Virus record (IMG/VR): IMGVR_UViG_3300031371_000002
Span: 2,910-66,909 of that record
Reading direction: 5' to 3' (one strand)
Source of the DNA: a virus
Length of the DNA stretch: 64,000 bases
The notes under the pieces were generated by a model. It worked only from the letters and a program-made list of their open reading frames with translations, ran no database searches and was not told the origin of the DNA. Position numbers and translations under genes: made by a program. This document shows, piece by piece, positions 12,719 to 62,174 of this stretch. How positions within the stretch are numbered: the first letter of the stretch is position 1; each line of letters opens with the position of its first letter.

Positions 12719-13351
12719 TTATACATAGGTTATTGTTCCTAAGCCTGATAAAATTTCATCACCTTCCTTAGTTAATTTCTTTTCTGTCACAACAAAACTT
12801 CCTGTAGCATAATCACTTGAAAGAGTCACCTCTGTACCAATTTGAATATGTCTTACAGTTCCCAACTTGATGCTGATAGAATCCCTAAGATATAAAGTCT
12901 TCTTACGATTTAACATTGTAAGAACTTCACTATTTATATAGTTCTTAGGAGATATCTCATCAGTTGTTCCTGTTGAAAGTCCCGTATAAACATCCTCTGA
13001 TTGATTTGCTTGAGTCAGTTGATATATTTTATTATCATATGCTTCTGTATTCCATTTCGCTGATATCTTTGAAACGATATTATCAGGTGCTGATGACTCT
13101 AAACCATCTTCAAGAATCTCAAAGTCAGTAATCGTTTCAGATGTTGATCCAGTGAGTTTATCTACAAAGTAGAAAGTTGTTCCATCTAAATAGAAAAGGT
13201 GGTCTGTATATTCACATAGACCTATTAGATATTCTATTCCATATTGTTGACTTGCTGGATACTCTCTTACTGAGACATCTGTTGCATAGGTTGTATCATA
13301 GGAGTAACCAGAAAATACTTTTGTTATTACTTTATCTATTGTGTTGAACAC
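12719..13351 (-). CDS. Tail tip hub-like protein
   Basis: Position; start ambiguous (see findings). Confidence 0.45.
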   Translation of the reverse strand: MFNTIDKVITKVFSGYSYDTTYATDVSVREYPASQQYGIEYLIGLCEYTDHLFYLDGTTFYFVDKLTGSTSETITDFEILEDGLESSAPDNIVSKISAKWNTEAYDNKIYQLTQANQSEDVYTGLSTGTTDEISPKNYINSEVLTMLNRKKTLYLRDSISIKLGTVRHIQIGTEVTLSSDYATGSFVVTEKKLTKEGDEILSGLGTITYV

Positions 13352-20551: not shown

Positions 20552-20576
20552 TATTTTTCCTTTTCTAATGTACTTA

Positions 20577-20607
20577 TGGGAGAGCTATTCTAAGCTCCCC
20601 AAAATTA
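20577..20607 (-). terminator. Hairpin after the tail tube gene
   Basis: GGGGAGCT..AGCTCTCC; shares TAAGCTCCCCAAAATTA (+ strand) with the post-capsid hairpin. Confidence 0.6.
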
Positions 20608-23682: not shown

Positions 23683-23700
23683 ATATTATCCTTTTCTAAG

Positions 23701-23727
23701 AAGGAGAGCCTAAGCTCCCCAAAATTA
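23701..23727 (-). terminator. Hairpin after the capsid gene
   Basis: GGGGAGC-TTAG-GCTCTCC. Confidence 0.65.
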
Positions 23728-25020
23728 TACTGTACGAGTAAGGTTGATGTTGATACCGGCAATTGCATACTTGTGGGAAGTATCAACTGTACCAGCAGAA
23801 TCAGGTCGGTCATACTTACCATTGAAGCCGAATCGTGCAGAAGTGTACCATTCGATTGTCTGATTAGAAGGCTCACGCTTCATTTCAGTAATAATACTTC
23901 CAGATTTAGCGTAACTTATGAACATGGACTTGTTGAACATGATCATAGAACCAAGAGTATTTGCGCTACCAGATGTACCATCACCAACTGTACCATCAGC
24001 TTGTACCAGAGAAGGCATATAGCTGGAAATAACAACAGGGATTCCACCGATTGTATTAACAGCGCCCATTCCAGCAAGAGTAGAAGGCATACCAGATTTA
24101 GAAGCATCTGTATAGTCAGCCATCAGTCTGAGACGGTTGTAAAGGTTCTGAGTGACCATCAGGACAACATTACCTTGTGCAACTTGGTTAGCATCAAGAT
24201 ATTTACCACCAGCTTCTTGCATAGCAAGGATATAAGTGAACAGAGCAGCATCAGTCAGAGCAGCACCACCAAAGTCAACAGTATCTTTACTCAGTGCAAT
24301 TCTACGAAGACCTTTCCAAGACTTCTGAGTTGAAGTTGTACCAGAGAATGCATCCCCATAGTAGTCAACATCATCCATATGTGTTGCAGTGTTATCACCA
24401 CTGATGATGGCAAGCTCAGTACCAACAGCCATACCACGTCTAAGGTCAGCCATTTTCTCAGCAGCAACATCAATAAGACTGTCAGCAAGGGTTTCATAAG
24501 AAGCACCAGTTGTACCGAAAATCTTATCAAGCTCATATCTCATCAGAGTATAGCTAGAGTTACTTTGTGTACCAGTATCGCCTTCAGCAACACGATATAC
24601 TTTCAGCTTGTCGTTTTCAAGGATATCATGAACTCCACCCTCTTGAACTTCTTTATAGTTGATTAGTCTGGAGACATTTGTTTCTTCCCAGATATCACGC
24701 TCAACCATACCGGAGGTAGGTCCAGTTGCAAAAGTATCATCAAGAGCAGCATCAGTTGTAAGGCTTACCGCTTTCATACCTTTGATTTTTGCATCAATAG
24801 CATCACGGTCTGCACCAGTAAGCTCGTGACCTTTAGCAGCACGAAGCTGTTTCATCATACCAACAAGACCAAGTACTTCTCTCTCCTCTTTACTTGCAAA
24901 CTTAGGATTAAAATCTTTCTTATTCACTACAGGTTCCTTTGGAGCCTTTGTTTCAGGCATTTTTGCTTCTTTAGCTTTTTCGGCAACTTTCTGTGCCATT
25001 TCTTTGATTAGTTTACTCAT
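23725..25020 (-). CDS. Major capsid protein (HK97 fold)
   Basis: VAEG; ELAIISGD; TIGGIPVVISSYMP; follows the protease gene. Confidence 0.9.
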   Translation of the reverse strand: MSKLIKEMAQKVAEKAKEAKMPETKAPKEPVVNKKDFNPKFASKEEREVLGLVGMMKQLRAAKGHELTGADRDAIDAKIKGMKAVSLTTDAALDDTFATGPTSGMVERDIWEETNVSRLINYKEVQEGGVHDILENDKLKVYRVAEGDTGTQSNSSYTLMRYELDKIFGTTGASYETLADSLIDVAAEKMADLRRGMAVGTELAIISGDNTATHMDDVDYYGDAFSGTTSTQKSWKGLRRIALSKDTVDFGGAALTDAALFTYILAMQEAGGKYLDANQVAQGNVVLMVTQNLYNRLRLMADYTDASKSGMPSTLAGMGAVNTIGGIPVVISSYMPSLVQADGTVGDGTSGSANTLGSMIMFNKSMFISYAKSGSIITEMKREPSNQTIEWYTSARFGFNGKYDRPDSAGTVDTSHKYAIAGININLTRTV

Positions 25021-26753: not shown

Positions 26754-26801
26754 TTTCCTGTAGTTTCGGATATCGTTAGATGTCCTAAGCTTTTCAAAAT
26801 T
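26754..26801 (+). repeat. 48 bp hairpin-plus-palindrome element (second copy at 57573-57620)
   Basis: 40/48 identical to 57573-57620 by manual alignment. Confidence 0.8.
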
Positions 26802-26809
26802 CCGTTTTG

Positions 26810-29093: not shown

Positions 29094-29372
29094 TTATCCT
29101 TTCAGATAGCCAAGTGCTTTGAGCTTTCTTTCTGCTGCTTCTATTCTATTACCCATTAGATTAGCTTTCTTTTCTTTAGGCATTTCCCTAAGCCCGAAAT
29201 TTTCAAGATAGAATAGGACACCCATTTCAAAGATTGTCAAATGGTTTTCTTTTACTTTACCTATTGAGTTAGTTTTTGAAGATGATTTAACAGGTTCTTC
29301 TTCAATAGGATATTCTTGAAATTCCTCTTTAGGCTCTTCAACCTTTTTTCTAGTGCTTCGTCTTACCGCCAT
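29094..29372 (-). CDS. Hypothetical protein
   Basis: ORF between terminase and portal. Confidence 0.55.
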   Translation of the reverse strand: MAVRRSTRKKVEEPKEEFQEYPIEEEPVKSSSKTNSIGKVKENHLTIFEMGVLFYLENFGLREMPKEKKANLMGNRIEAAERKLKALGYLKG

Positions 29373-32807: not shown

Positions 32808-33090
32808 CCATAACTATACCATAAGTTATCTTAAATATATCTTACAAAATAATTTCCATAAAAAACGTCCAAGAGCAATTGTGGGTATTCCGCTTGTTAA
32901 AGCGGGAGGCTGCAATTGCGTAAATAGAATATACTATTAAAGTAGTTTTCAGTAGTTATCCTATATAATGCTGTTCATAGTAGTTATTTCTAAGCTTTGT
33001 ATTTTTAAATAGCTTATAAAATTAGTCTCTAATAGTGTTGCTGGGACAAGCCCAGCGAGTATAAATGAATTTACTTTTAAAAATACTTAT

Positions 33091-34269: not shown

Positions 34270-34525
34270 ATTTGGAAAATTTTTGCCAATTTATGTCAAA
34301 AAATGGGAATCTAGTGGGAAAATTAAGATAAAAAGGGGATAAAATGGAATTAGAAGTAGTAAAAATAATATTAGTAATATGGTTAATTATATCAATGGTC
34401 AGCTCAATGGTGGCAGATTCGTTAATTATTGGTTTTGGTGCAACTACCTTTGCATTTTCTATAGCATATGTAGCTCTATACTTTGGATTTATGTAAAATT
34501 TAAAAAGCTTAGAAAAATAGCTAAT

Positions 34526-35163: not shown

Positions 35164-35716
35164 TGAAGAGACAGGTGATTGGAAAGTTCCTTTTGGTGTT
35201 AAAGCTTTAGGGAGATCGTATAAACCAGAAGATATTGAATGGTTAAAACGTCACCATAGAGTTATTACCAGAGATTCTTTATTTCATTGGTGGAATGTAA
35301 GGACTAAAAGGAAATGGAGTTGGGATGGTTTTATGGATGTGATGGCTAGACATAGAGTTACTAAAGAGAAAGATAAAGGGAATATACCTCATTTGATGAT
35401 TTGTTTAAAGGATTTTATGTGAGAGTAAAAGTACATACAACAAGTTTTGGTGATGTTGAAGTAGAATTAATTCCTGAAGATGAATTTTATGATATGGTAG
35501 AAGCTGGAGATAACCCTTATCGTTGGAATGAGACTACTATTGGGTATATTAACATATACGCTTATAAAACAAGAATTGTAGGTACAGAAACTATGTATGA
35601 TGTATATGAACTAGGTAAAAGATCATTGAATGAAATTTGTAAACAGTTAAATGGAGAACTAATTCATTATTCCCAATCTCCAATTAAAATTTAAAAAGCT
35701 TAGGAAAGGATAACAA

Positions 35717-46115: not shown

Positions 46116-46717
46116 GGTAAAGTTTGATTGATATGGTTGATTGGAGAATGTTTAGGGATAGGCATTCTCTTATGAGTTATATTTTAAAAGGAAAGATATG
46201 TTTGATAAAGATTTTGATTTTATGGACTATTTTAATAACTTCATTGATGGAGAACTTGATAAGCGTTATCAAGAAGCAAAACGTAAAAGTAACTTGACTT
46301 TATACAAAATGAAATCAGGTAGGTTTAAAATCATGGACTATTATAAGAATACTGTTTATGAATGTGATGATGTAGTTGTTGCAAAGAAGTATTTTATTAA
46401 GATTACTATTGGAGAATAGATGGAATTAGATTTCAAAAATGATTCATATTGTAAAATACTAATGTCTTTACTTATTATAGGTAAAATTGGACCAAATGAA
46501 TTTAGAGGTGATCTAGAAAAGTATGAGATATTTTTAAGAAGCTTAGGAAAATAATGAAAATAAAGATTCCACAAAATAGTGCTTATGATATATGTCTCTA
46601 TAATGAAACACTACAAGTCTATGTTGATCTATATATTGTTAAAGCAAAGATCAAGAGAAGAGAACTATTGTGGGGATTAGACCCTAAAGACATTTTAGAA
46701 TATTATATGGAGAACAA

Positions 46718-47209: not shown

Positions 47210-47373
47210 AAAAAGTATATAAATCACTGATAACTTACTACGATAAAAAAGGTATTGCGGTATGCGAGTATTTTTACATCAAGATAACTTTCTTAGGGAT
47301 CACTATTCATGAGGACACCTATGAGTTGTTTGATGAAGATAGAGATCATGAGTCTATTAGAGTTCATGAAATA

Positions 47374-49923
47374 TAGTGAACATTTGAAGAGAGCTTAGGA
47401 GATTATCACAATGATACATACAGCTAAAGATGTAACATTACAAATTGCACAAGATACTAAAGTAACCATAAAGAATAGAAGTATCAAGAGTAAGGCTAGA
47501 AAGAAGAAAGTTATTAAACATGGTTATTTAAAGTTTAATGCTTCTAACTTCTCTATTGAGATTTGTAGTAAACATTTCTAGAAAAACTATACTATTTTTC
47601 TAGATTAAAAATGCTACATAGGTATCTTTATATCTAGTTTTATTGGATATAAGGGCTAAAAGAATACATACATATATTTTAAAGGAAAATAAATGAATAT
47701 AACTCTCATAAAAGATAATTTAGTTCTATATGGAGAAAGTGGGTATAGAGTTGTTCCAAAAGATAAGATTGTAGAATATGCGAAATCTGGAAAGATAACT
47801 TTTAAAGAAGCTCATGCTTTAAATCATTTTTTATGGAAGTTAAGTAATGATAAGTTTATGAGAGATATTGAAATGCTTAGTAATGGAACTTATAAAAAGG
47901 AGAATGAATGAAAGCATATATAACAGAAGTAGAAATATATGATGACGATACAGATAGTAAAATGTTGATAGCAAAACTACAATCGTTTGATGAAGAAGCA
48001 TTCGTATTGACGATTAATGAGAGGATTGTTACTGGAGATGAGCTTCGTGAGATTGCTGATTTGTTAGATTCTGATATTTTGAGAAAACCTTTGGGGGTGT
48101 AACTATGATCTGTACCGACCGTGTTATTTTGTTAGTTATATTTCTTGTACTTATTGGGTATATGTATTGGGTTTTTAGAAGATGGTGACTCCGAAGGAAG
48201 AATATTCTACTATAATTGGGTTATATAAATTTTATCTTGCTTAGGGAAATATTACAAAAAGGAATATCTATAATGGAAAAACAAGAGTTAACTAATAAGA
48301 ACGTAATACATATATTTATACAAACTGAAAAGGGCTGTGATCCTATGGAAGGTGAATACTCACTATCTATTGGTAATATGAAATATCCTTTAGATATCTC
48401 TTCTCCTGGTGGAGTAGATGATGTATCTTTGATAAAGGATGCAATAGAAAATGAATTTGATCTAAGCGGCCTCCCTGAAGAAGGATTAACAGAAGTTGTT
48501 CTGATTGAATCTGGAGAATGGGAAGATGTATTCTGGCATAAATACTATAATGTATTTAGATATGAGATTCAATATTCTAGTTGATAGTGAACATTTAGAT
48601 TGAGCTTAGGGGAAGATTATAAAAATAAGCATATAGGAGACAACATATGAAAGTAAAAGTAGGAGATATAATCCAAAATCCCTCTGTATCTGAAGATCAC
48701 CCTAATTACAGATCACTTGTAATTAAAACTGGAAACACTCTAACTTCAGAAGCTATTGGTATTTATTCAAAAAGAAAAGTTAAATATTATACATCAGACC
48801 TGAATGCAAATTTTAAAGTTGTAGGTAGAGGTCACGTTGAAATTATTGTAGATGGGTTATATAATAGTGAACATTTAGATTTAGCTTAGGAAAAGATTAA
48901 CATATAGTAGTATAGAAGGAGAAAGATATATGAAACTTAGTTTAAAACTCCGTCCGGTAGAGATAGAACACCTCCTAACACTATTAGAAGAGCGTAAGAG
49001 AGAGGGTAGCTACTATGGAAGACGTGAGCATTATTATAAAAGAACAGATAAGTTAATTAACTTACTAGAAGAACAGTTGAAGCTATCTGGTGTTAGATTT
49101 TCTGAAGCTTAGGGAAAGATTATAAATGACATATATAGAGAAGAAGAGTATTCCAATAGCAAATGATAATGATGTAATAGAGGCTACGCTATATGGAAAG
49201 AAAGTAGTAACAAAAGATACCTCAGATGATGGAACTTTTACATTAGTCTCATATCATTACAAAGATAATATATACATTGTAGATGAGTCTTTTAAACCTT
49301 TCTTTTTCAGAAAACTTTTTGTTAAGGTTAAGACAATGGTGAACACTTTAGTAAGTAAGATAAAATTTTCCTAAGCTTAGGATAATATTACAAAAAAAGG
49401 TATATATAAAGGTAATAGGTATGAAAGAAGAACATATATTTACTGAAGATACAGATGGGATAGACCATATCAATGCGTATTCTAAAGGTAAAACTGAGTT
49501 GGGTAGATTTCTAAGTAACTTTACTAAATGTAAGATAAAAACAGACGAGGGAATATTTAACAGTTTAGAGGGTTACTGGTATTGGCTTTTAACAGAAGAT
49601 GAATCTTTGAAGATACTGTATGGTTACAGAGCAAAACAGTTAGGAAAAAGTCTGGATAAAGTAAATGAAGATGTTGATAGAGATAAGTTTAAAAAAGCAA
49701 TAGATTATAAACTACTTACAAATAGAAGACTCCTTATTTCACAGGACTTATGGCTTGACCTTGAAGTGCCTATTACTCACTACTATTCTTACGGAGGAAA
49801 GCCTATAAGAACTAGACACTCTTGGATTATAGCTCATCTAGAGCTTCGTAGAAAATGGTTTGTTGCTAATAAGGGCAATAGTAAATACTTTTAATTTTTG
49901 TCGAGCTTAGGGAAAGACTATAA
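47374..49923 (+). repeat. Gene-junction repeat array (TAGTGAACATTTAGATTNAGCTTAGGNNAAGATTA and half copies)
   Basis: Copies at 47374, 48239, 48585, 48865, 49106, 49369, 49904; 48585 and 48865 match at 32/35. Confidence 0.8.
49421..49894 (+). CDS. NADAR-like protein (T4 gp30.3-related)
   Basis: GRFLSNF..GIFNSLEGYWYWL..YGYRAKQLG. Confidence 0.6.
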   Translation: MKEEHIFTEDTDGIDHINAYSKGKTELGRFLSNFTKCKIKTDEGIFNSLEGYWYWLLTEDESLKILYGYRAKQLGKSLDKVNEDVDRDKFKKAIDYKLLTNRRLLISQDLWLDLEVPITHYYSYGGKPIRTRHSWIIAHLELRRKWFVANKGNSKYF

Positions 49924-49935
49924 TAAAGGACACAT

Positions 49936-50216
49936 ATGATATATACAGATAAGAGAGAGAGTATGGAGAGATAGAATACTCAATAGAGGGTAGCACCATA
50001 TACATACACTCATTTACTACTTATGATACATACAGGAGACAAGGTTATGGCACTAAACTTTATATAGAGTTGATTAGTAAATACCTATCTGTAAATACTA
50101 GTTTTGTTGAAATATTTAAACATAATATTGAAGGGGCTTCTTTTTTTGAAAGTCTTGGTTTTGAGTATTGTGTACAGGATGACTCTGATCATATATTTAT
50201 GGTAGATACTTTTTAA
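49936..50216 (+). pseudogene. Frameshifted GNAT acetyltransferase
   Basis: RRQGYGTKL and N..A..FFESLGF lie in a frame that joins the ATG at 49936 if one AG of (AG)5 at 49952-49961 is removed. Confidence 0.8.
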
Positions 50217-50430
50217 TAGATGTAGGGTGAACATTATATCATATATGATGGTTTTTCTGAGAATTTTGCTTGAGTTGGTCTAGTAAAGAATATGGTGAAC
50301 ATTTAATTCATTGAAATTAGTATTTATTGTACCAACTCAAAAAAGCACTCTCTTAAATAACAATAACCCCCCCCATCCCTTTCAAATAAAACTAATCTAA
50401 ATAACAAGCTTCATATAAGACTATCTTAAC

Positions 50431-50445
50431 TGATAACTATTATCA
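50431..50445. promoter_or_regulatory. Fur/PerR-box-like 7-1-7 palindrome
   Basis: TGATAAC-T-ATTATCA. Confidence 0.55.
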
Positions 50446-50574
50446 ATAACTAACCCCGCCAAATTTACAAAAATAAAATCTAATCCCGCAATTAACCTTA
50501 CTATCAAAGCTTCACATAATAGATCAACACATAACTTATAAGTCAATAAAATCCTTTATAATAACTACTCCATT

Positions 50575-50665
50575 GTTACCTATTTACTCAAATCGTCTAT
50601 ATTAAACGATCTACCATAAAGTAATACCATTGTAAGCCTAATCATATAAAGTGCCTTAAATCAAG
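50575..50665 (-). repeat. Dispersed element, copy E (inverted)
   Basis: Minus-strand GGTATT at 50628, AGATCGTTT at 50612. Confidence 0.75.
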
Positions 50666-50850
50666 CGCTAGCTATGTTAAATAGCCGATATAACTATACG
50701 AAACAATATCAATAATAAAAAGCTTAGAAAACTACCCATTTAATAATACTTTAAGAAACATTACACTATACACACATATACATATTATATAGCCTCAACT
50801 AAATAAGATAATAATACTCTCATTCTGTAATAATTCTTTTTAAAAAACCC

Positions 50851-50878
50851 TTGACACATAATCTGAATGTGGTATACT
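50851..50878 (+). promoter_or_regulatory. Strong sigma70 early promoter
   Basis: TTGACA-16-TATACT with extended -10 TG and an upstream A/T tract. Confidence 0.8.
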
Positions 50879-50907
50879 AACTCTATAACTTGAATAAAGG
50901 ATAACAG

Positions 50908-51054
50908 ATGAAAGACTTTCTAATCAAAGAAACTTTAAAAGCATTACAGCAAGCAGAACAAACAAAAGCCTTTTTAAAAGACATTGAAAGAAAAACAAAA
51001 CATCTTTGCCCTGTTGAAAGAGAATTAAGAAAACTTAAAGCTTTAAATAGCTAG
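50908..51054 (+). CDS. Small basic early protein (48 aa, not in the ORF track)
   Basis: AAGGA RBS; MKDFLIKETLKALQQ...KLKALNS. Confidence 0.65.
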   Translation: MKDFLIKETLKALQQAEQTKAFLKDIERKTKHLCPVERELRKLKALNS

Positions 51055-51141
51055 ACTAATCGAATAACTTTTTAGGGGGCTTTATAGTAAGTCTCTTATA
51101 AAGGTTATCTTAACCTTACACTTCATCTAAAGGAACTTATC

Positions 51142-51843
51142 ATGGCTAACATGAAAGAAAACATCAAGAAGGCAGCAAGCAAGGCGGTAACTCTTCCAAT
51201 GACTAGAGGCAAAAGAAGTCCTCTCCAATATGTGGGCGGGTTAGCACTTAATCCAACACATAAGACTAAGAAAGTGTTTGACTATTCAAGCATTCAATCT
51301 GGTAAAGAGGTTGCTAAGGGTAAAATGATTAACCTTACTCTTAAAAAGGTTCTTAAAAGTGTTGACACTCTAAGCGAGGCAAAAATAGCCTTTAGAAATA
51401 TGATTGTAACAGAGTTTAAACTCAATAAAGACAAACTGGAAAGAACCCGTGTTATTACAGATAAGGTTAAAGAGATCAAAGCCCTTGAAAAGCACTACCA
51501 AAGAGAGCTTATGGAAGTATTGAACGGCTATAGCTTCCTTATTAAAAACTCTATCGTTATCACAGGGGATAACCTTGATCAATATCACAAATGGATTGAT
51601 CTTGTAAAGATGTCAAAAAGAGTTATTGGAGCTATCAAATACGGAGAGAAACACTCTCTTAAGATTAAGTCAACACGGTCAGCTTTGAAAAAAGCAGTCA
51701 AAGCGGGTTATCTGAACACTTATGATTATCTTGATAAAGTCAAAGAAGATTTTGCTATTGTAGCTAATCATAAGCAGGCTGTTAAACTGGAGCAGCTTAA
51801 AAATGTGTTCAATAATGAAAATAAAGTTGAAAAGGTAGCTTAA
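51142..51843 (+). CDS. Lys-rich early protein of unknown function
   Basis: AAGGA RBS; flanked on both sides by long hairpins. Confidence 0.75.
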   Translation: MANMKENIKKAASKAVTLPMTRGKRSPLQYVGGLALNPTHKTKKVFDYSSIQSGKEVAKGKMINLTLKKVLKSVDTLSEAKIAFRNMIVTEFKLNKDKLERTRVITDKVKEIKALEKHYQRELMEVLNGYSFLIKNSIVITGDNLDQYHKWIDLVKMSKRVIGAIKYGEKHSLKIKSTRSALKKAVKAGYLNTYDYLDKVKEDFAIVANHKQAVKLEQLKNVFNNENKVEKVA

Positions 51844-51848
51844 GTAGT

Positions 51849-52300
51849 TTACCCCATAGAGTAACTTTTTATTAAGATTCTATGGGGTTATACTTCCAAA
51901 GGGGTAAATAATATTATAGAGCTTCTTTATAGGGGTTCTTAGTGTTATTTGATTTTGAAATGTATTGTAATAAGTGTTAGAAACTATATAAGATACTCGC
52001 TTAGGGTATCCTCTTTATGGTATCACTTGAACGGCTTATGTGGTAGATAGTTAATGAAACTCCGCTTAGGGGAAGTAGTTAAAAGGAAACTTTATGAAAG
52101 GTTAGTAAAGTAGGACACGCTAAAAAGCATTACATAGAGAGTTATTTAACCTTATGTTCTTTTAAAATGATTGTTGTATAAAATGTTCATCATTAACCCG
52201 CTTAGGGTATGATACTTATAATAGTTTATATGATAGATATTGTCATTCCTGTTTAGTCTCTTTACATGATCGCTTAGGTTATGTTTATTATAGAGGCGTT
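51849..52300 (+). ncRNA. Multi-hairpin non-coding element with four C(GCUUA)G-capped stems
   Basis: CGCTTAGG at 51998, 52063, 52199 and 52271, each at the apex of a different stem. Confidence 0.7.
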
Positions 52301-52320
52301 ATTCTAAGGTAGATATAAAA

Positions 52321-52335
52321 TGATAATCGTTATCA
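52321..52335. promoter_or_regulatory. Fur/PerR-box-like 7-1-7 palindrome
   Basis: TGATAAT-C-GTTATCA. Confidence 0.55.
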
Positions 52336-52640
52336 ATAATAACCAACTTAGAATAAAACAGATTCCTATAAAATACAATTATAGGACACTCTCCAACCAT
52401 TAACACGGTAATAAGTTTCGATTAACGCTTATTTTATGGGGGAACTGGATTAAAGTTATTTCGGCATATTGCAGTCGATGAAGGGGATTAGAAGAAACTT
52501 CCCTATGCAATTGAGGTTATGTGTATCTATACCAAGAAAAGTAAATTAGATAAATTACAGCTTTATAGCTTTTTTGGGGCATTTTTCGGAATGTCCTATA
52601 AAGAGTTAATTCTCTTAAATTATGTTTAAAGGATATACAA

Positions 52641-52859
52641 ATGGCACTACTGGCAATTCTAAGATTTATTGGTACGGGTATGCTTTGGGTAACTGTGGTA
52701 ATGGTTATTCTTAAATTCATTGAGGTTTATGTTTTTCCATTTAAAGCACCTCTTCCATATGACTTTGGGGATATTGCTGCTATGGGTATTATTACAGCGG
52801 TTATTTATATCTTGGTGTTTATTCTTATTAAAATTCAGCTTATTAAAGAAATTTCCTAA
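52641..52859 (+). CDS. Two-TM membrane protein
   Basis: Two hydrophobic helices; the stop codon lies inside the TTTCCTAAGCTTAGGAAA palindrome. Confidence 0.65.
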   Translation: MALLAILRFIGTGMLWVTVVMVILKFIEVYVFPFKAPLPYDFGDIAAMGIITAVIYILVFILIKIQLIKEIS

Positions 52860-53127
52860 GCTTAGGAAAACACACATGGAAATATTATCATATGAAGTTA
52901 TTTCTATAATAACATTTGGTTTAGTAAGTTTAGCTTCAACATATAAATTGGCAGAATTAATCAATAAAGGATCAATCATGAATAACCTATGGAGAGTATA
53001 CTGTAACGGAGTATTAGTTAATGTGTTTATTAAATTTGAGAAAGCTCATAAATATGCTGACTCTATAAGAACACCTTTAAATCAAGTTAAACTTAAAAGG
53101 GGTTGTTAATATAAGCTCTCCCTAAGC

Positions 53128-53286
53128 TCAAGATTTTTTAGGGAGATTCTCTTTCATAAAAAGTTCTGTAACATAACCAAGCCAAAGGACATCAAACATA
53201 TCTTTGTTATTATTACGAAGATCATATAAAGTAGATTCTCCCTTATTAACTCTTTTGGCAAGCTCTCTAATGGTAGGTTTTTTCAT
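53128..53286 (-). CDS. Small HTH protein (52 aa, not in the ORF track)
   Basis: MKKPTIRELAKRVNKGESTLYDLR...; GAAGGA RBS; own promoter. Confidence 0.75.
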   Translation of the reverse strand: MKKPTIRELAKRVNKGESTLYDLRNNNKDMFDVLWLGYVTELFMKENLPKKS

Positions 53287-53330
53287 AGCAATTCCTTCTA
53301 TATTTTGTTGTTTATTTGGTATACCGGATA

Positions 53331-53365
53331 ATTATAGCAAGATATCTCTTAAAAATAACTTAATT
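53331..53365 (-). promoter_or_regulatory. Leftward sigma70 promoter for the HTH gene
   Basis: Minus-strand TTAAG..TTAAG..TGcTATAAT. Confidence 0.75.
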
Positions 53366-54117
53366 AAAAGAAATCTTTTCAAATAAATTCACAAAACAAG
53401 TGAATTTTGAGAGAAAATTTCAAAGGAAAAATCATGTATATGAGAACAAGTCTAATGGATAATATCAGAAGTAAACCTGCTTATGAAGCATGGCAACTAG
53501 GTGACTACGCTAGTAATAGCAAGGATTTCTCCACAAAAGACAATGCTCTATCAGAGCTACGACACTTGTGGAAGCAACTTCAGTCAGTCAATACAGTCGA
53601 AGAGTATGATAGAGTTTACAGTCGTATAGGTATACTATCTTCTTTAGTTATATAGGGTTGATTCTTTAATAAGATTACCCTAAGCTTGAGAAAATTTTGA
53701 GAGGTGAGAAATTTTGCAAAAGAGTTTCTTATAAAAAATATGCAGAATAGTGCATATTTTGAGTGATAATTAAGTCACGGTTAATTGATAGGGAGTATCA
53801 AAATGGCTAAAGTAATTACTTTTTATGCCTTATGTGAATGGGATGGTGGGGAAAGGCATATTCCTAGAAAATATATCTTCTCCAAAGAAGATGCGGAGAA
53901 GTGGGACAAGGAACAGGATTATAAGGGAACCATAACAAAACATGAGTATATAGTTTATGATGATCTGGAAGATTTGGAGAATAACTCTAAAAAGAAAATC
54001 AAAGAAAGAGCCTTAGAGAAACTTACAGATGAAGAGAAGATTGTATTGGGTCTTAAGTAATGTATATGTCTATAATAATTTCCCAAGCTTTGGAAAATTT
54101 GGAGAAAAGGATTAAAA

Positions 54118-54346
54118 ATGAGTAAAACTTAGAAAAGGTCTGGAAGTAATTGTTGATTATCAAGCTACTAACAGAGCTGATATTATAGAGGTTTATGAAA
54201 GTGAGTCAAATCTGGAAGGGTTTGATACTATTGCAGCTTTCAATGATTCTTATGTAGATTTAGAGTCAGGAGTTACTGTACAGTTAGAATACATCGCTGT
54301 ATGGGATGAAGATAATTCTGATTATACGGAAGAGTTTGAGGTTTAA
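54118..54346 (+). pseudogene. Frameshifted acidic protein
   Basis: ATG AGT AAA ACT TAG; removing one A gives a 75 aa ORF MSKLRKGLEV...EEFEV. Confidence 0.7.
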
Positions 54347-54949
54347 GATTATATTCTTATTATAGAGTATTAGGGAGGATTATTTGTGTATCTTTCCCTA
54401 AGCTTGAGAAAATTTAGGATTGCTTTAAAATTTTAGGGGAAGCTAAGTCCTGAATTTAACACTTTTAGAAAAAGGATTTAAAATGACAGTCAGTGGAACA
54501 TATGGAACAGGAACACCTTGTGATGTATTTGTATACGAAACAAGACAGGGTAATTGGTATTGTGTAGAAGGTTCAAAGAATGTAAATTGCACATTTGATG
54601 AAATTTCAGATGGAGTTGATGTTGAATGTCTTTATACTGTGGATGTTTTCACATGGAATAAAGATATTGATTCTTATGAAGAGCTTGTTGAAGCTGTGGA
54701 TTTTACTCTTAAAAAAGTATTGGCTAGTGAAGCAAAAATAGCCTTCAGAGATATTGGTTAAGTAATGAAACAAAACACAGTAGAAGCACTCTATAAAGAT
54801 TTCCTGAATATGAAAGAATCTGGGGAACTTTTTGGAATGACAATCAAAGAAGATGAGTTTGGAGAAAAGTTTATGCATGTTCCTAATGATGTATGGTATT
54901 ATTTAGATGATGACCAAAGAGATTCATTTGATAGTATTGTAGAAGAAGA

Positions 54950-55040
54950 GTTTTTAAGACGTTTTACACCTCTAGTGCTACCTAGGTATTCCTTAATAGG
55001 AGATCGTTGATTGTAGACGATTCTAGGTATGTTAAAAGGG
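54950..55040 (+). repeat. Dispersed element, copy F
   Basis: GGTATT at 54985, AGATCGTTGATTGTAG at 55001. Confidence 0.85.
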
Positions 55041-55144
55041 GTGTTTCATTCTAAGCTTGATAAAAATATTGAGCTTAGGTCTATAAATTAATGAGTCTCT
55101 AATAATTTTGGAGATTCACAGTTTATATACAAAAGGAAAAACAA

Positions 55145-55528
55145 ATGAGTTACCTTAGACAAATAATGAAAGATATTGCCATTGATAACATTGATGGTAT
55201 GGACAGAGATGAGGCAAGATATTATCTTGAAAATGAGGCTATTCCTGTTTCAGGTTCAGTCAGTGGGTTGATTTATTATGCCGACACAGAACCTTACGCA
55301 CAGGAATTTCATGATGAAATCATTGAGTTGATGGAAGAGATTTATGATAAGGAGATTCCATCAGAGCTCCTGACTCTGAATGCAATGACATGGTTTGCTT
55401 TTGAATATCTTCTATCAGGAATGGTTGATGAGATCATTGAAGAAGTTTACGGAGATGAAGAAGATTTGGAAGAAGAGGAAGAATGGGATACTTCTTGGGT
55501 AGATGAGCAGCTAGAAGGAAAAGCTTAG
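55145..55528 (+). CDS. Highly acidic protein, Ocr-like DNA-mimic candidate
   Basis: SGSVSGLIYYADT..FHDEI..WFAFE; D/E-rich tail. Confidence 0.5.
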   Translation: MSYLRQIMKDIAIDNIDGMDRDEARYYLENEAIPVSGSVSGLIYYADTEPYAQEFHDEIIELMEEIYDKEIPSELLTLNAMTWFAFEYLLSGMVDEIIEEVYGDEEDLEEEEEWDTSWVDEQLEGKA

Positions 55529-56868
55529 AGGAATACCCTAAGCTGAATATAGTTTAAAGGGATAAATTATGAGAAAACTATTTGAGAATATTCCAGATAA
55601 TCTTTCATCACATAAGATTTATATATGTGTTAAGAATGAGATAATCTATAAAATGTCTACTGCTGAAGCTGATAAAGATAAGTTCTTTCAGCTACATGAT
55701 TTAAGTAATTCATATCATTGGGATTCTCATTTTGAGATTGGAAGATTTCATAACATGAAGGAGTGTTTGGAAAGTGTTCCAGATGACTATCAGATATATG
55801 AATTTGATAATCTAAAAGAATTTTCTGATTGGCTTTATAAACGATTCAATAAAGATTTTCTAAACAAATGATTTTTAAAAGGACAGATTATGAATAGAGA
55901 TAATTTAGAAGAGTTCATTGAGGAACTTAGAGAAATTTGGGTAGGTTCTGGATACTCTATAAAGTCCCTATGCAGAAACTTAGAAAGTTCGGGGTTAGCT
56001 TCTGAGAAACCTTTTGAGGCCCAAATACCTAGAATCTTTTTTGGGAAAGTAGAGAATAAGTATATTGTTATTAATGTTACAATATCAGGATATGAACTAT
56101 TAGTACCATTACAACCTTAATCAAGGATAAATTATGATGTACCAATGGAAATCAGAATATTTGGAAGAATATGCACAAGGTTATATTATCGTTGAAGCAA
56201 ACTCTGTAGCAGGAGCTAGAATTAAAGCTTTGAAATTCTTTGATGAGTATGACAGAGAATCGTATTCGTGGAATTATGGAAGGGATCAGGATGAAGATGA
56301 TAAGAAAGAGATACTAGAAAGATATGAAACTTTCACTAGAGATATTTCAGATGAACCTAAAGTTTCAGAAGTTATATTTATTAGAGGAAGTGAATAGAAT
56401 ATTTACCTAAGCAAAACAAAAATAAAAGGATAACACATGAAAGAACTGATTAAAAAATACAAATTGTCTTACACTCTTGAAGATGTAAGCGCACCAAGTT
56501 GGTCTAAAGGTAATCATTTTCATTATATCATTGATGTTGATGGGGAAGAGTTTGATTATTGGACTTCTATTGCAGATTATGAAGATGGAAAAGATGAGCT
56601 ATCGGATAAAGACTTACTTCTAGCTTTTCGTGAAATTGTGGATGATGCACTTTATCCTACTCAATATGATCAAGACGAATTTCTTAGAAGTTTTGGGTTT
56701 GATGAAAGTTTGGAAAGTGTAAGACGGGGAGAAGAAGTATATAGAGGCTGTCAAGAAAGTGCAGATAAATTAAATCTAAGTGAGTCTGAACTTATTGATA
56801 TTCTTGATGAATTAGAAGAGAGAGATGTCTGTTAAATCTTAATAGAGAGATACAATAGGATATACTAT

Positions 56869-56988
56869 CCCCTATTAATGTGTTCATAGAATAACGCTTT
56901 AAAATCTTCTTTTTCATGGATAAACCCAGTCATAGCTTCATTTAAGTTTCGACGATTTTTATCCAGAAATAGAGGTTAGAATAACGGT
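56869..56988. repeat. 120 bp intergenic repeat, copy 1
   Basis: Homologous to 62541-62660. Confidence 0.85.
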
Positions 56989-57572
56989 CAAAATAAGTAG
57001 AAAAATATGTCAGAATATGAGTACTATAAAAAAGAATTTGGAAGAGTAGAGTTTGGAGAGTTTCCACCTTTGGTTAAAGTTATAGGAGAAGATGAATCAG
57101 AAACAAAATGGTTAAGTTTCAATATGGATTCAATTAAAGCCCTTCGTGAATTTCTGGATACTGTTGAAGAAAGGATTCAAAATGATTAGAGAAGGCGCTA
57201 TTAGAAAAATAGTACAACAAGAAGTGAAGGAAATACTGCAAGATATAGATGAATTTGGGTATAGTTCCTATTTAAACCATTTACTGGCAGGTAGATATAT
57301 AGAACATACAAACGAAGACCTAGAAGATGTTTATGAAATGTTCTTTGAAAGGTGTATCAAAATAGAAGAAAAGGATTCAAAATGATCAATGCAATAATTG
57401 ACAGAGCAAGAGAGCCTTATAGAGAGGCTAAATATTTGGTGAAGTTGTTTGGAAGAGTTGTATGCTCAGGAACTAAAGAGCAATGTGCTAACTATTGTAA
57501 AGATAGAAAAGTAACATTGGTTGTTATTCCTGAGTCTGGTGCATATGCTTGGAGAGAGCTTGATTAGGGCAG

Positions 57573-57620
57573 TTTCCTGTAATCTCGGATATCGTAAGGT
57601 ATCCTAAGCTTAGGAAAATT
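57573..57620 (+). repeat. 48 bp hairpin-plus-palindrome element
   Basis: 40/48 identical to 26754-26801. Confidence 0.8.
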
Positions 57621-58596
57621 TGGAGAAAGGATGATAGAATGGAAAGTAAAGAAACAGGACCCTTTGGATATATTAATATAGGAGGTAATATCTACAAATC
57701 TAAAGACTGCAAAGGGGATTATTACATACTCAATCCGAAAAGCGGCCGGTTTTATTTTTTTGGAGGGATAGTAGACCCAAAAGTTCTAAGAGATATGGCC
57801 GATGAACTTGAGGAATACAGGGAACAAGAAAGAATTAAAAAAGAAGAAAAACAAAAAATTCTGGATCGACTAACTCTAGAAGAGAAAATTATTCTGGGAA
57901 TTAGAGGGTAATTTTCTAAGCTTAGAAAAATTTGTAGAAAAGGATTAAAGATGGGAATGGAACAAAATAATGGGCATGTTAAATATGTTAATCATCCGGG
58001 AGTAGATGCTACGGATTGTCCCTTGAGGATAACAGTTACAACAAGAGTTTAAATTTCTCTTATCTTATATTGAAAAGGATAACCGATGAATCAAATCTAT
58101 AAAGAAGCAGTAGAAGAACAGCTTAAGCTAATTGATCAAGAAATTGAGCTTCTTATGAAAATTCGTGAGAAAGCTGTTCAATGTTTGGAAGAGGTTGAAG
58201 GTGACTCCGATAAGGATTTTGTATTGAAGAATAATTTTGGATTGCAAAAGAAAGGAGATTGATATGGGATGTCATACGTGGTACTATAAAAGAACAAAGA
58301 GTAAAATAATCCCATTTAATAAAAAGTATAAATGGAAAGCTTTATATAACAAGATTGGAAATAAGCTTTATATTGAGAATAACGACTACCATGATGGTAT
58401 CAGAGTAGCGGGGTATCCTGAAGATAAACTGTTTAGTTATAGAGATTTTTTAAGATTCATTCAAAAGAATGTCAGGAAACTGCAATACAGAGGTCAAACC
58501 AAAAGAGTTACAATTAAACAGAAAGTTGATATGAAAGAGTACTTTCAGAAATTTCCAGATAGTATGATTGATTTTGGTTAGAAGTTAAGAGATTAA

Positions 58597-58690
58597 AAAA
58601 TAAAAGCTTTAAATAGCTAACCTATACCTTACCATTCCTAAGCCATAGATCGTTGATTGTAGTGAATCCTCATGCGTTTATGAGGCATAT
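58597..58690 (+). repeat. Dispersed element, copy G
   Basis: ACCATT at 58631, AGATCGTTGATTGTAG at 58647. Confidence 0.8.
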
Positions 58691-58886
58691 ATGAATCAAG
58701 ATTTACTTGGCTTAGGGAAATATAAATTAAAGAGTTTCCTCTAAATTCAGGAAGTTCTGAGTTTATATTCAAGGAGAGTAGCATGAGGTTTAACCATATG
58801 GATTTCCAAATTGAAGTGATAAAACTTATCCGAAGATTAAAAGCAAAGAAAAGACTTAGAAGAATGAAAGAGAAAGGATATTTCAA

Positions 58887-59366
58887 ATGAGATACTTAAC
58901 CATATTGTTTCTATTCAGTTCATTGTTTGCAGAGTTTAAAGTTATTGGATATGGAATATCATACCATCCTGACAAATATTATATTCTTGAAACAAAATAT
59001 GTTAATCCATACACAGGAAGAGTTTCAAGAATAGAGAAAGAGAAGATGGAGCATAATTCAGATCATAAATTGATTGGCTTAGAATATGAATTTGGAGGTT
59101 ACTCTATTACAGGGGTATCTTATAAGAATAGTTTTTATAATATTACTAATGCTGTATATGTTTCTAAGCTTTGGAAAATTTCTGGCTTAGAGTATAAACT
59201 AAGTGTGGGACTTGCAACAGGATATGGCACAGCATATGAAACAAGAGACAGCATAAAACTTATGGGGATGCCTTCCATTCAGAAAAAGATTGGAAATTTT
59301 GAAGTAGAAGTTGGCATCTTAGGAACAGCATTATTTACAATGCTTAAATATAATTTTGGAGAATAA
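58887..59366 (+). CDS. Signal-peptide outer-membrane beta-barrel (PagP-like) candidate
   Basis: Cleavable signal; SYH, IGLEYE, YKNSF, GLATGY; C-terminal LKYNF. Confidence 0.55.
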   Translation: MRYLTILFLFSSLFAEFKVIGYGISYHPDKYYILETKYVNPYTGRVSRIEKEKMEHNSDHKLIGLEYEFGGYSITGVSYKNSFYNITNAVYVSKLWKISGLEYKLSVGLATGYGTAYETRDSIKLMGMPSIQKKIGNFEVEVGILGTALFTMLKYNFGE

Positions 59367-61111
59367 AATGACACATAAAGAAAAGTATACAAACTATAAA
59401 ATCCATGAAACTTTTGATGAAGGTATTATCTGGTTGACAAGAGGACTGTATTACAGAGCAATTAGAATTGATGGTGAAGAGAAAGTCTTCCATAACTATG
59501 CGAAAGCTTATACATTTTTGATGGGGGTTGATGAAAGCAAACTCTAAGAAGAAACTAGGTAGAATAAATCTATAAAGGAGAAACTATGTGTGAACAATTT
59601 GAAGTGAATGTTAGAGGACATATTCTTTGGGTAGAGCTTTGTGTGAGTTCTGTTGTTTGGGGAGATTCTGGAATTGGTCACTATCAATATGGAGATAGAA
59701 ATGAATATGATTCAAGACCTTTCATTGAAGAGTTTGATGGGGATATCTTTGTCTTCTCTGATCGTAAGAAGGAGTTTGTTAAAATTAGTGCTGGCTTAGA
59801 GAATGATTTGGTTGATATCATTTTAGAGAATGAAGATATCGTGGATAAAATGGAAAGAACATTTAAGGAGAGAGAAAGATGAATGAGAAAGAAAATAACC
59901 TAGATCCTAAAATTCTTGAAAATTTGATTTTAGAATTTATGAACGAGTGGGATAGGTGTGGTAAATATCCTGACACACCTGAGGAAATTAAAAGATTCAA
60001 TTGGATATACGATAAAATGTATCAATATATTTTTGTAGGAGATATTGAATGACTGAACAAGAAATATATGAGTTAATAGTAGATAGTATTAGTGCTACAT
60101 TATTTAACTCTGACCATGATAGAATTCGGGAAGTGGCTAAAGTTATTTATAAGGAATGTGATGAGAAAAATAAAAAGCTTAGGAGAGAGAATAATGAACT
60201 ATTATGAAAATAAAGAAATGGATGAATTTTTTGCAGAAGAAAGAGCAAAAAGGGAAAGGGACCCTGAATATAAAAGAGTTCAACTTGAAAAAGAAGGAAG
60301 TATAGAATGCCGGAAATGTGGCACTATTCAAAATATTAAAAACACTTTCTGTTTTAGATGTGGCAATAAACTAAATTAAAAAGCTTAGAGGAGAAAACAA
60401 ATGAAAGCATATATTAGAAGATTCTGTGATTATGGATACACAGTCAATACAGAAATTAAGACAATGGAAAAGTTTGCATGGATGATTGGTCAGATGCTTG
60501 GAATGGGAATTATGGAATACACACTCAATGGAATCAAATTTATTGAGAATGGGCAGGTGGATATTGACAAATGGAACAATAGAAAACAACTTTTGAATTT
60601 GGAGGATTGATTATGGAACATCCAATTGTATTTCAATCATATGAAGAAGTCGAAGAAGCAATTAAGGTTAAGGCTATTAGACCTTCAAACGGTATTAATA
60701 CCTTCAGTAGATACAAAGACGGAGAATATGCTTTCCCTGTGCTAGTATGGGTAGGGGGATGGGGACTTACACATCAGACAAATCAAGATGAAGCTTGGAA
60801 TGAGGAAGAGTACCTTATAGAATTGCAGCAATCTAAACTATGGAAAAATATTAGAGAAGAGTTTATTTCCACCCCAATCCAAATGACAATTGAAGAGCTT
60901 GAAAATGTATTAGGGCATAAAATTGAAATTATCAAGGAAACAAAATGACAGATGGATATGATACACAAGATGTTGAATATGAAATTAGGAAAGCACAACT
61001 AGAACCATTTATCCTAGATGTTAAAAAAGCATTGGACTATTTGGATGTTGCTTGCGAAGATGTTGGTCTTGATTATTATAATCTTGTACAGAGAATTGTT
61101 GAAGGAGAAGT

Positions 61112-61411
61112 TTGATGAATAAGCTAAGAGTTTGGTGGATTCCACAAGTGCCTATGAAAAGTTTCAATGTTGAAGTTGAAAGTGTTGAAGAAGGTATAAA
61201 AATTCTAGATACACTTTCATCATATGACATATTTCAAATTGATAATAATATCAAACCTGATTGTTGTAATGTAGGAGGACTTCAATTGTTTGATCCAGAA
61301 GATAAAGAGGATTCACCAGAAGGGTCATGGGTAGATTGGTATTATGAAGATGAGCTGAACTATTTTGATGATCCTGATGAATATCTAGAATGGAAAAGAG
61401 GAGAAGTTTGA
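61112..61411 (+). CDS. P22 gp17-like protein (superinfection-exclusion-associated family)
   Basis: LRVWWIPQVPMK.F.VEV..YD.FQ..N.IKPD..N.GGLQ..WVDW. Confidence 0.7.
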   Translation: MMNKLRVWWIPQVPMKSFNVEVESVEEGIKILDTLSSYDIFQIDNNIKPDCCNVGGLQLFDPEDKEDSPEGSWVDWYYEDELNYFDDPDEYLEWKRGEV

Positions 61412-62174
61412 TGGAACTCACAAAAGAAGAATTTATTAAGATGATGTATCAATATCATTTTAAACTATCAAATCCTGATGTGTGTTTGGAAGAAGATTAT
61501 CCTTCCTTTGAAGATATTGTAGAATTAATGTATAAGCATTTTCATGAAACCAATCAATAAACTCCTCATAAATGATGGGAACAGGATTGAGCTTAGAGGA
61601 AAGTTCTGGATGATTCCTACAAATAATGCAAGACAAGATAAAACTTGGGTTAAGGGTTTTAAGATTGTAGGAATCATTGATGATAAGAACTTTCTATTTC
61701 AACGTGTATGGGAACATTCTCCTAAGCTTTTGAAAGAAATCACCGATGAAAAGCTTAGGGAATATGTTGGAGAAATATACACAGATAAAACATGTTTTGA
61801 ATTGGAGTATTGATGACACTACTTAAAGTTCTACAAAGAATAGAAGATGAATTCTACCCAACAGAAATAACTATCCATTCACTATATTCCCCAAGAAAGA
61901 TTTACGGACATATCCTAATTTTGGAGGGAATCCTAACATTTGAAATCAATGAAGGAGACAACCCAGAAGAAATCATTTCAAGTCTTTATAAGAAACAAGG
62001 AGTTATGTCAAGCTTAGGGATATATATGATAGACAATGACCTAGAAGTATCTCACCTTGTAGAACATAAAGATGGATTCAGAATAGGAGAAGTCTTCATG
62101 GATTATGACTTCAATGTTTATCAATGGAGAAATGGGGAGAAGATTAAGATTGAAAGATAATTTTCTCTCACGCT

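Follow-up and report, generated by a model that had tools for sequence, protein, structure and literature searches.

The 64,000-nt stretch analysed here, called the window below, covers bases 2910-66909 of a single 66.9-kb contig (IMG/VR virus record IMGVR_UViG_3300031371_000002; some counts were taken over the whole contig) and carries a repeated unit of about 20 nt built on the heptamer GCTTAGG. This unit is a real, selected and oriented repeat of regulatory type, and its polarity is unusual and so far without explanation. The likeliest reading is a transcription signal specific to the phage, whose copies also offer homology for exchange like that of the promoter(early) stem-loop elements (PeSLs) of T4-type phages. 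Repeated intergenic signals are the main handle on regulation in uncultured phages without recognisable protein relatives, and this one splits the phage genome into three domains and gives a map of probable transcription units. We call these domains the structural arm (4.4-33 kb, minus-strand genes), the metabolic arm (33-50.25 kb, plus-strand genes for nucleotide metabolism together with small genes) and the accessory arm (50.25-64 kb together with the contig start up to window position 4.4 kb, plus-strand small accessory genes).

A composite and oriented repeat

GCTTAGG occurs 53 times in the window, both strands counted, against 4.78 expected and a top value of 13 in 100 shuffles, and a maximal-order Markov model ranks GCTTAG and CTAAGC above all other hexamers in over-representation. 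Variants with one mismatch stay near background, and the core is therefore sharply defined. Over the whole contig there are 57 copies, 31 of them in or touching non-coding DNA (13.9% of our own simple gene map), and the 6-mer core is present at 19 of the 42 gene junctions in the 47.4-62 kb range and at 34 of 123 contig-wide. A previous sequence-only reading had proposed a palindromic motif concentrated at gene junctions between 47 and 62 kb. The non-random occurrence and the concentration at junctions are borne out by these numbers, and the copies in that range are real, but the motif is not confined to it, since 12 copies, all of them sense, lie in the structural arm.

The palindromes are also located where that reading had placed them: CCTAAGCTTAGG starts at 49370, 52855 and 57603 (three copies against none in 100 shuffles), TTTCCTAAGCTTAGGAAA is present at 52852-52869, and CTAAGCTTAG has five copies against 0.10 expected, those at 57916 and 4299 included. 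The near copies listed around 34505, 35697, 53678, 54083, 54397, 55050, 55521, 60175 and 60381 were all found, and the motif does supply the stop codon of the open reading frames (ORFs) ending at 48889, 49112, 49374, 52859 and 55528. However, palindromes account for only about 5 of the 57 copies. As the repeated element is an oriented composite, the palindrome is not the unit but a special case of it: the perfect palindromes (49370, 52855, 57603) and the near-perfect ones (57915, 4298), 12-24 bp in length, are two units overlapping back to back.

The composite consists of an AT tract (AAATTTT), a gap of 4-5 nt, (A)GCTTAGG and then purines. When all copies are aligned on the GCTTAG strand the profile reads AAtTtTa.taAGCTTAGGaaAa, with purines 3' of the core; it holds about 24 bits of information and is roughly symmetric, with T runs and TAAG on either side. 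The AT tract, scored as one of the words AATTT, ATTTT or AAATT at -14 to -4, accompanies 25 of the 57 copies at this fixed distance, namely 14 of the 31 intergenic copies (background 7.9%, p ~1e-8) and 11 of the 26 coding ones (background 4.6%, p ~1e-8).

Copies inside genes are selected at the DNA level. The coding strands hold 20 sense copies of GCTTAGG, where 300 synonymous-codon shuffles give an expectation of 0.98 and never more than 5; the reverse complement is found 6 times (1.3 expected). The 20 sense copies are split over two reading frames (11 and 9), so that no peptide motif explains them; a peptide motif or codon usage as the source of the coding copies was ruled out by the two frames and the synonymous shuffles together. 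These copies are dispersed, about one per 1.2 kb.

Orientation was counted on full units, defined as AT tract plus GCTTAG[GA]. There are 8 sense and 0 antisense full units in the structural arm and 9 sense and 0 antisense in the metabolic arm, whereas the accessory arm has 7 sense and 13 antisense (Fisher p = 2e-5 against the 17:0 of the other two arms combined), several of the 7 sense units forming the other side of a palindrome or inverted pair. In terms of absolute strand, full units are on the plus strand between 33 and 50.25 kb and on the minus strand over the remainder, from 50.25 kb round to 33 kb; the two changes of strand coincide with the non-coding regions of greatest length (32.8-33.3 kb and 50.2-50.9 kb). 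The position relative to genes is equally constrained. In the structural and metabolic arms the next start codon follows within 100 nt for 12 of the 17 full units, a number reached in 0 of 20000 random trials (mean 2.8); the core is always upstream of the ribosome-binding site, or is itself that site, and in six cases the start codon follows 6-12 nt on. The inverted units of the accessory arm stand 0-40 nt past a stop codon and 15-35 nt ahead of the next start, three of them at an identical spacing of 30 nt because they have a 45-nt block in common. The inversion in this arm is more than the legacy of copied spacers, since 5 antisense units are inside coding sequence.

Most copies do not fold. 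We folded 18 units as 46-nt RNA windows and compared them with shuffles: strong hairpins were obtained for two, one after the capsid gene (-12.5 kcal/mol) and one after the gene of a 430-aa structural protein (-14 kcal/mol), while the others gave 0 to -9.1 kcal/mol (z from -1.7 to +1.4), several being less structured than their shuffles. The -9.1 kcal/mol fold is a neighbouring hairpin that leaves the core unpaired, and the perfect palindromes fold at about -5 to -6 kcal/mol. A hairpin, terminator or attC reading was rejected for most copies, which show no fold beyond shuffles. The sequence-only reading had placed the core in the post-capsid hairpin, where it indeed stands (23715), as it does in the hairpin after the 430-aa gene (20595), and had described hairpins at 52 kb with the core as their loop. 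Four such hairpins exist, in an 800-nt non-coding stretch (51.85-52.64 kb) that follows the first operon of the accessory arm and folds better than shuffles (z = -3.2). These four copies have no AT tract, and the register of the core differs, the loop being GCUUA at 52 kb and UUAG after the capsid gene.

Conservation could be evaluated in one close relative and one distant one. The phage collection held no DNA match to 47374-62020 and a single match to the portal protein, at 23% identity. IMG/VR scans with portal and terminase peptides gave nothing, and the loci returned by the patterns ATTTTCNNAAGCTTAGG (53 loci) and GATCGTTGATTGTAG (72 loci) were all single matches, none of them core-enriched; among these pattern loci, similarity to the contig was limited to L054, a distant syntenic IMG/VR contig with a terminase 30% identical, and to a weak 140-nt match to L098. 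A terminase relative at 82% identity is found on a 79-kb contig. The close relative, L055, is a metagenome contig with a terminase 93% identical and DNA about 80% identical; the comparison covers 12.8 kb of the structural arm on its 31.4-kb contig, of which 8.8 kb aligns at 80.5% identity.

Of ten sense GCTTAG sites, 7 are identical in L055, compared with a rate of 0.31 for any 6-mer (p = 0.013); the intergenic sites are kept in 4 of 4 cases and the coding ones in 3 of 6. Upstream of the terminase and tape-measure genes L055 has perfect sites where the window has one mismatch, with the AT tracts kept, and its hairpin after the tail (430-aa) gene has a stem made of two inverted AGCTTAG. The sense bias is also present there, with 10 sense and 2 antisense copies. 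L054 has 0 GCTTAGG in 21 kb and no comparable repeat, and the signal is therefore lineage-specific, an absence that is expected if site and factor co-evolve.

Genes of the contig and individual sites

The window has a low G+C content (29-39%), and tRNA and Rfam scans of it gave no tRNA gene and no Rfam match. A tailed-phage module occupies the minus strand from 5 to 32.8 kb (terminase, portal, head proteins and a tape measure of 1403 aa). From 33 kb on, genes on the plus strand encode ThyX, both ribonucleotide reductase subunits, a sulfotransferase (the sulfotransferase-family ORF at 41203-41892, plus strand) and dCMP deaminase; downstream of them lie dozens of small ORFs without a family match in Pfam and PHROG scans. 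The contig has no terminal overlap. Its last ORF, 63667-64000 (plus), is only the N-terminal 110 aa of a protein with a weak RNA-ligase match (RLIG1, E = 0.011), and a KYDG motif is present in the translation. The contig thus stops inside an RNA-ligase-like gene, and the genome is incomplete.

The sites of the structural arm, full units unless described otherwise, are the following.

12738..12758, minus: within the final 25 nt of ORF 12719-13351, the next start following 30 nt further on
20573..20609, minus: unit fused to the hairpin that follows the structural gene for 430 aa (-14 kcal/mol)
23695..23729, minus: unit fused to the post-capsid hairpin GGGGAGC-UUAG-GCUCUCC (-12.5 kcal/mol); kept in L055, where a T run follows
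26784..26804, minus: sense, 63 nt upstream of the head-gene pair 25017-26720 / 23725-25020; kept in L055
29187..29207, minus: within a 92-aa ORF, 95 nt upstream of the portal start
32989..33009, minus: GCTTAGA copy heading the minus-strand structural arm, in the divergent non-coding region; kept in L055
32790..33296, no strand: divergent non-coding region in which unit orientation switches from minus to plus strand

At 29187..29207 L055 keeps the core while the flanks change, one amino-acid change included. In the metabolic arm the sites are these.

34493..34513, plus: full unit of the GCTTAGA variant, sense, the first of this arm, after its first three genes
35684..35704, plus: full unit, sense, 12 nt upstream of the start at 35717
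46527..46547, plus: full unit within the 3' end of ORF 46420-46554, with the next start 6 nt downstream
47373..49925, plus: array of seven single small genes, each followed by a sense GCTTAGG
49093..49113, plus: full unit, sense, AT tract with AAGCTTAGG; its TAG ends ORF 48930-49112, and 12 nt past the core comes the next ATG
49361..49385, plus: full unit with the perfect palindrome CCTAAGCTTAGG; gives the TAA stop to ORF 49126-49374
50217..50907, no strand: G-poor non-coding region in which orientation switches back, ending in TTGACA-N16-TATACT (50851-50878) that leads into the accessory arm

The cores of the array are at 47393, 48239, 48604, 48884, 49107, 49375 and 49905, with purine-rich, TTATAA-like sequence following, and several of its copies have a local GTGAACATTT element ahead of them. 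This element, as (A/G)GTGAACATTT, is found at or just past the stops of small genes at 47375, 47567, 48586, 48866, 49338, 50226 and 50294 (plus) and at 52181 (minus). It is not enriched window-wide (25 copies against 25.5 expected, up to two mismatches allowed), and its 7 best copies cluster at 47.3-50.3 kb. The region 50217-50907 comprises 690 nt with no ORF, a locally negative GC skew and two AAGCTTCA(T/C)ATAA repeats; the promoter that ends it and heads the accessory arm is canonical and the best sigma-70-type match of the region. This region may be a genome end, an origin or a leader.

The accessory arm contains the following sites.

51992..52284, plus: four hairpins with a GCUUA loop closed by C-G, cores at 51999, 52064, 52200 and 52272
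52852..52869, no strand: perfect 18-nt palindrome TTTCCTAAGCTTAGGAAA; TAA stop of ORF 52641-52859, next ATG at 52876
53679..53699, minus: full unit, antisense to the flanking plus-strand genes
54076..54120, plus: reference copy of a 45-nt repeat family, made of a variant core (CCCAAGCTTTGG), GAAAATTT, a ribosome-binding site and ATG
54397..54417, minus: full unit, antisense, 93% complementary over 27 nt to the sense unit 49094-49120
57602..57623, minus: palindromic core, AT tract on the minus-strand side; the plus-strand start at 57639 is 30 nt downstream
57912..57935, no strand: near-perfect palindrome TTTTCTAAGCTTAGAAAA, 30 nt upstream of the start at 57951
4295..4312, no strand: palindromic copy TCTAAGCTTAGG near the point where the arms converge

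The 45-nt repeat recurs at 57597 and 57909, before unrelated genes. The ORF that follows the reference copy stops after 4 codons and an open frame goes on downstream (54119-54346, plus), which is possibly a decayed gene. The only convincing minus-strand gene of this arm, 53128-53286, encodes 52 aa and is followed by a hairpin containing GCTTAGG.

A second repeat family, of about 40-65 nt, is present in the larger spacers in both orientations. It reads ..CTACAATCAACGATCTCC..TTAAG.AATACC.. on the minus strand, with an invariant ACGATC; two copies have CTTAGG in place of TTAAG, and the family may be related to the main motif. Its copies are as follows.

2507-2571, 4541-4580, 31948-32055, 54952-55059, 58631-58670, 62177-62241 and 62946-62985: second repeat family
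50597-50628: further copy, inverted
about 31190-31230: further copy, upstream of the terminase gene

Two other features of the accessory arm were recorded. A 120-nt non-coding segment occurs twice in its spacers (56869-56988 and 62541-62660, 81% identical). The ORF 58887-59366 (plus) resembles the outer-membrane protein PagP (PHROG 3600, E = 1e-15) and hints at a Gram-negative host; its atlas look-up gave virus and outer-membrane clusters only. The same kind of look-up gave no usable match for a 233-aa early ORF, and a scan of genome contigs for host clues matched one 6-kb contig of a metagenome-assembled genome, with no host inference.

Readings of the unit

A promoter-type element fits the unit best, since it is asymmetric, co-oriented with genes in two arms, placed upstream of starts, unstructured, conserved and lineage-specific. 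We give a tentative preference to the hypothesis that it is the recognition element of a phage-specific middle or late transcription system, with inverted copies in an early-like arm. Transcription would start at or near the unit, which could be a T7-type single-block promoter with the start at the G after GCTTA or, equally possibly, a box for a phage activator or sigma-like factor that redirects the host polymerase. The inverted copies after nearly every small gene of the accessory arm would send antisense RNA into the gene or bind the factor unproductively, and either way they would help to switch off the early arm; should they indeed initiate or obstruct transcription, early genes would be shut off one by one in an unusually systematic way. 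The two hairpin-fused copies after the capsid and tail genes might be terminator-plus-restart points. Near-identical stretches of about 20-45 nt are found again and again between genes that are unrelated, and for this reason the copies, like PeSLs, probably serve homologous exchange as well; this would be a side effect and not the primary function. Antisense programmes in phages are reported for PAK_P3 (PMC4933390), with a timing opposite to the one proposed here.

Several observations weigh against this hypothesis. The inverted units of the accessory arm are its chief weak point, as they are explained only by the putative antisense or occlusion role: 13 of the 20 full units in that arm oppose the genes, 5 of them within coding sequence. 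The in-gene excess is 20-fold, some copies being more than 1 kb from the next start, and to our knowledge this exceeds what is seen with phage promoters. The strand pattern can be stated just as well in absolute terms, with no mention of genes. No -10 hexamer stands at a fixed distance (offsets of 1, 4, 7 and 10 nt from the core), and sigma-70-type matches are not enriched between 44.5 and 64 kb (102 against 94.8 expected), none being systematically at units; sigma-70, sigma-54 and SPO1-type patterns and -35/-10 spacings, inspected by eye on the aligned sites, were none of them consistent.

The unit predicts a phage-specific factor and none has been found so far, as Pfam and PHROG scans of about 100 ORFs of this incomplete contig gave no RNA polymerase, sigma factor or clear regulator. 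No unit stands upstream of the first three genes of the metabolic arm. Two of these genes, the ORFs 33297-33851 and 33853-34269 (plus) next to the divergent control region, are the only paralogous pair of the contig (33% identity over 81 aa). The first, of 184 aa, has no homologue but itself in a set of 5.8 billion proteins. The second, of 138 aa, has sub-threshold helix-turn-helix matches only, among them DUF1492, a family that we take to be sigma-region-4-like; it is a possible candidate for the factor gene. Its structure model is too poor to use (predicted local distance difference test, pLDDT, 41). Sub-threshold helix-turn-helix matches were also obtained for the 52-aa ORF 53128-53286 (minus).

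It is also possible, if doubtful, that the unit is a genome-wide polar signal with a direction set by position, serving either a late antisense programme or an architecture oriented to replication or DNA ends. The units face away from the control region at 33 kb, and from both sides they are directed towards the non-coding region at 50.5 kb. In the antisense version at least 13 inward-facing putative starts may silence the early arm gene by gene; in the architecture version the unit may be a Chi-, priming- or barrier-like sequence and, if polarity does follow replication or DNA ends, would be a new kind of viral architecture sequence. We know of no such composite polar sequence in any phage (no literature search was made on this), and a full-text search with the 8-mer and 'phage' gave unrelated primer matches only.

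It is unlikely that the unit is strictly a signal for DNA metabolism, polar relative to replication or DNA ends (a Chi-like guard against a host exonuclease, a signal for lagging-strand priming, or a polar barrier). Between the contig start and 33 kb the bare 7-mer does favour the minus strand (17:1), and from there to 50.25 kb it favours the plus strand (15:3); the minus polarity is kept before 4.4 kb (1:5) even though the genes there are on the plus strand, both switches fall in the largest non-coding regions, and copies are dispersed within genes. By our reasoning, a Chi site of the E. coli type would show this polarity if the genome had its ends around 50.5 kb or its origin around 33 kb. 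However, the 7-mer is mixed (11:10) at 50.25-64 kb, the AT tract keeps its fixed distance in 25 of 57 copies, and 12 of 17 units precede start codons by no more than 100 nt. The AT-tract requirement, the clustering before starts and the mixed polarity at 50-64 kb are the reasons for which we rate a position-based signal lower.

The sequence-only reading had offered two functions, an operator regulon with a matching RNA decoy and a recombination site delimiting single-gene cassettes. The former, a dyad-symmetric operator for a dimeric phage regulator, with the 52-kb hairpins as a binding cluster or putative RNA decoy, is improbable. In its favour are the palindromes at five sites (49370, 52855, 57603, 57915, 4298), the rough symmetry of the profile, the four clustered cores at 51999-52272 and the sub-threshold helix-turn-helix matches in ORFs 53128-53286 (minus) and 33853-34269. 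Few of the 57 copies are symmetric, though, the sites of the accessory arm do not overlap recognisable promoters of the downstream genes, and neither the strict orientation (17:0, and 13:7 reversed) nor the sense-only 20-fold excess in genes is expected of an operator. A symmetric operator was thus not borne out, because the unit is asymmetric and strictly oriented (17:0 against 13:7, p = 2e-5) and is enriched in genes in sense only.

We see only a slender chance that the unit is a recombination site bounding single-gene cassettes, whether site-specific and integron-like or serving homologous, PeSL-like shuffling. Units within each arm are direct repeats, and the small genes flanking them are unrelated (one paralogous pair among 124 ORFs), although their spacers share 27-45 nt at 71-93% identity, some of them inverted across arms; gene duplication as the origin of the repeated spacers was rejected, the flanking ORFs not being paralogous. 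Whether the inverted units act on transcription or the polarity follows replication or DNA ends, spacers so alike between small genes that are unrelated could plausibly be places of modular exchange. Breakpoints were compared with one relative in the structural arm. A 27-nt segment at 26790, beginning in the motif (AAGCTT|AGGA), has no counterpart in L055 and is found again next to the copy at 57.6 kb, oriented alike relative to the motif. The two gene-sized differences border on units or on the second repeat family and do not break within the motif. The HNH-endonuclease gene 26810-27739 (minus), which sits between the portal and head genes, lies in an excess of about 770 nt over L055 that ends about 60 nt outside the unit. 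A replacement of 920 nt against 331 nt holds ORF 32187-32789 (minus, 200 aa), upstream of a small-terminase-like gene and flanked by one copy of the motif and one of the second repeat family, a position that would suit a cassette. Both genes look like mobile insertions, since L055 has neither. Against cassette borders are the copies within conserved structural genes (terminase, tail), which cannot be borders, the small size of the units (20-26 nt, mostly unfolded), the lack of alternative junctions or useful variants in contigs of the probable source run (the one sequencing run listed for this DNA, with no RNA run among the listings), and the lack of an integrase or recombinase among about 100 ORFs scanned, in agreement with the sequence-only reading, to which none was visible.

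An RNA-level element, that is a processing site or a site for an RNA-binding protein in sense transcripts, is very improbable: the sense bias in two arms, the position in 5' leaders and the GCUUA shown in four hairpin loops would suit it, but most accessory-arm units are on the antisense strand, there is no common structure, the core register differs between hairpins (GCUUA loop at 52 kb, UUAG loop post-capsid), and a cleavage site would be depleted in genes, where the unit is instead enriched 20-fold. The symmetric operator, the attC-like site and the RNA element each fail at least one test.

Comparison with known systems

A dyad operator would be symmetric and would work in either orientation, whereas about 5 of the 57 copies are palindromic and orientation is strictly biased. 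The attC sites of integrons are folded imperfect palindromes of 57-141 nt with a GTTRRRY core and an adjacent IntI integrase. Like them, the units follow single promoterless genes, include imperfect palindromes and share TTAGG with the GTTRRRY core; unlike them, they measure 20-26 nt, mostly do not fold, have GCTTAGG as core and are accompanied by no integrase that we could find.

Chi and the FtsK orienting polar sequences (KOPS) are 5-8 nt long and have no flanking requirement; a Chi site is read by the RecBCD or AddAB enzyme of the host, in whose genome it is enriched and skewed. The resemblance lies in a short over-represented oligomer, found in coding and non-coding DNA, that switches strand at defined points, and the difference in a composite unit concentrated upstream of starts whose polarity is lost at 50-64 kb.

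The middle (MotA box) and late (gp55) promoters of T4 and the gp28 and gp33-34 promoters of SPO1 use a phage-specific box for each temporal class, and the MotA box has a GCTT core. The unit is likewise a short phage-specific box in place of host elements, with the same GCTT core. It differs in having no fixed -10 spacing, and no AsiA, MotA or gp55-like protein was detected.

In PeSLs a strong promoter of the sigma-70-like type is joined to a stem-loop that acts as terminator (Arbiol et al. 2010, PMC2839356; Comeau et al. 2014, PMC4122927). The units resemble PeSLs in being small conserved sequences between unrelated, mostly ORFan genes of a plastic region, with an identity between copies that can support shuffling. 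They differ in that they have no sigma-70 hexamer pair and mostly do not fold, and in that they also occur in and between structural genes, in coding sequence and inverted in the accessory arm. What they share with PeSLs is the location between unrelated genes (19 of 42 junctions), and not the promoter or the terminator stem-loop. PeSLs are also marked by indel breakpoints of close relatives within the repeats and by the formation of mini-circles; in the part of the structural arm compared with L055, one 27-nt indel starts in the motif, and both gene-sized differences end close to units, though outside them.

The phage polymerases of the T7, T3 and SP6 group use single-block promoters, of which T7-like phages have about 10-17 copies. 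The units are far more numerous, include antisense copies in the early arm, and come with no cognate polymerase gene among the about 100 ORFs scanned in this incomplete 66.9-kb contig. Like T7-type promoters, they include copies within upstream genes and have a lineage-bound specificity; co-orientation with genes, also typical of such promoters, is 17:0 in two arms and 7:13 in the accessory arm. They also share with these promoters about 17 nt upstream of a putative start, AT-rich in the distal and specific in the proximal part, and a purine-rich start at G (..CTTA|GGRAA). The profile AAtTtTa.taAGCTTAGGaaAa, with the start position putative, fits the T7-type layout from about -17 to +6, with its AT-rich distal part and its G start.

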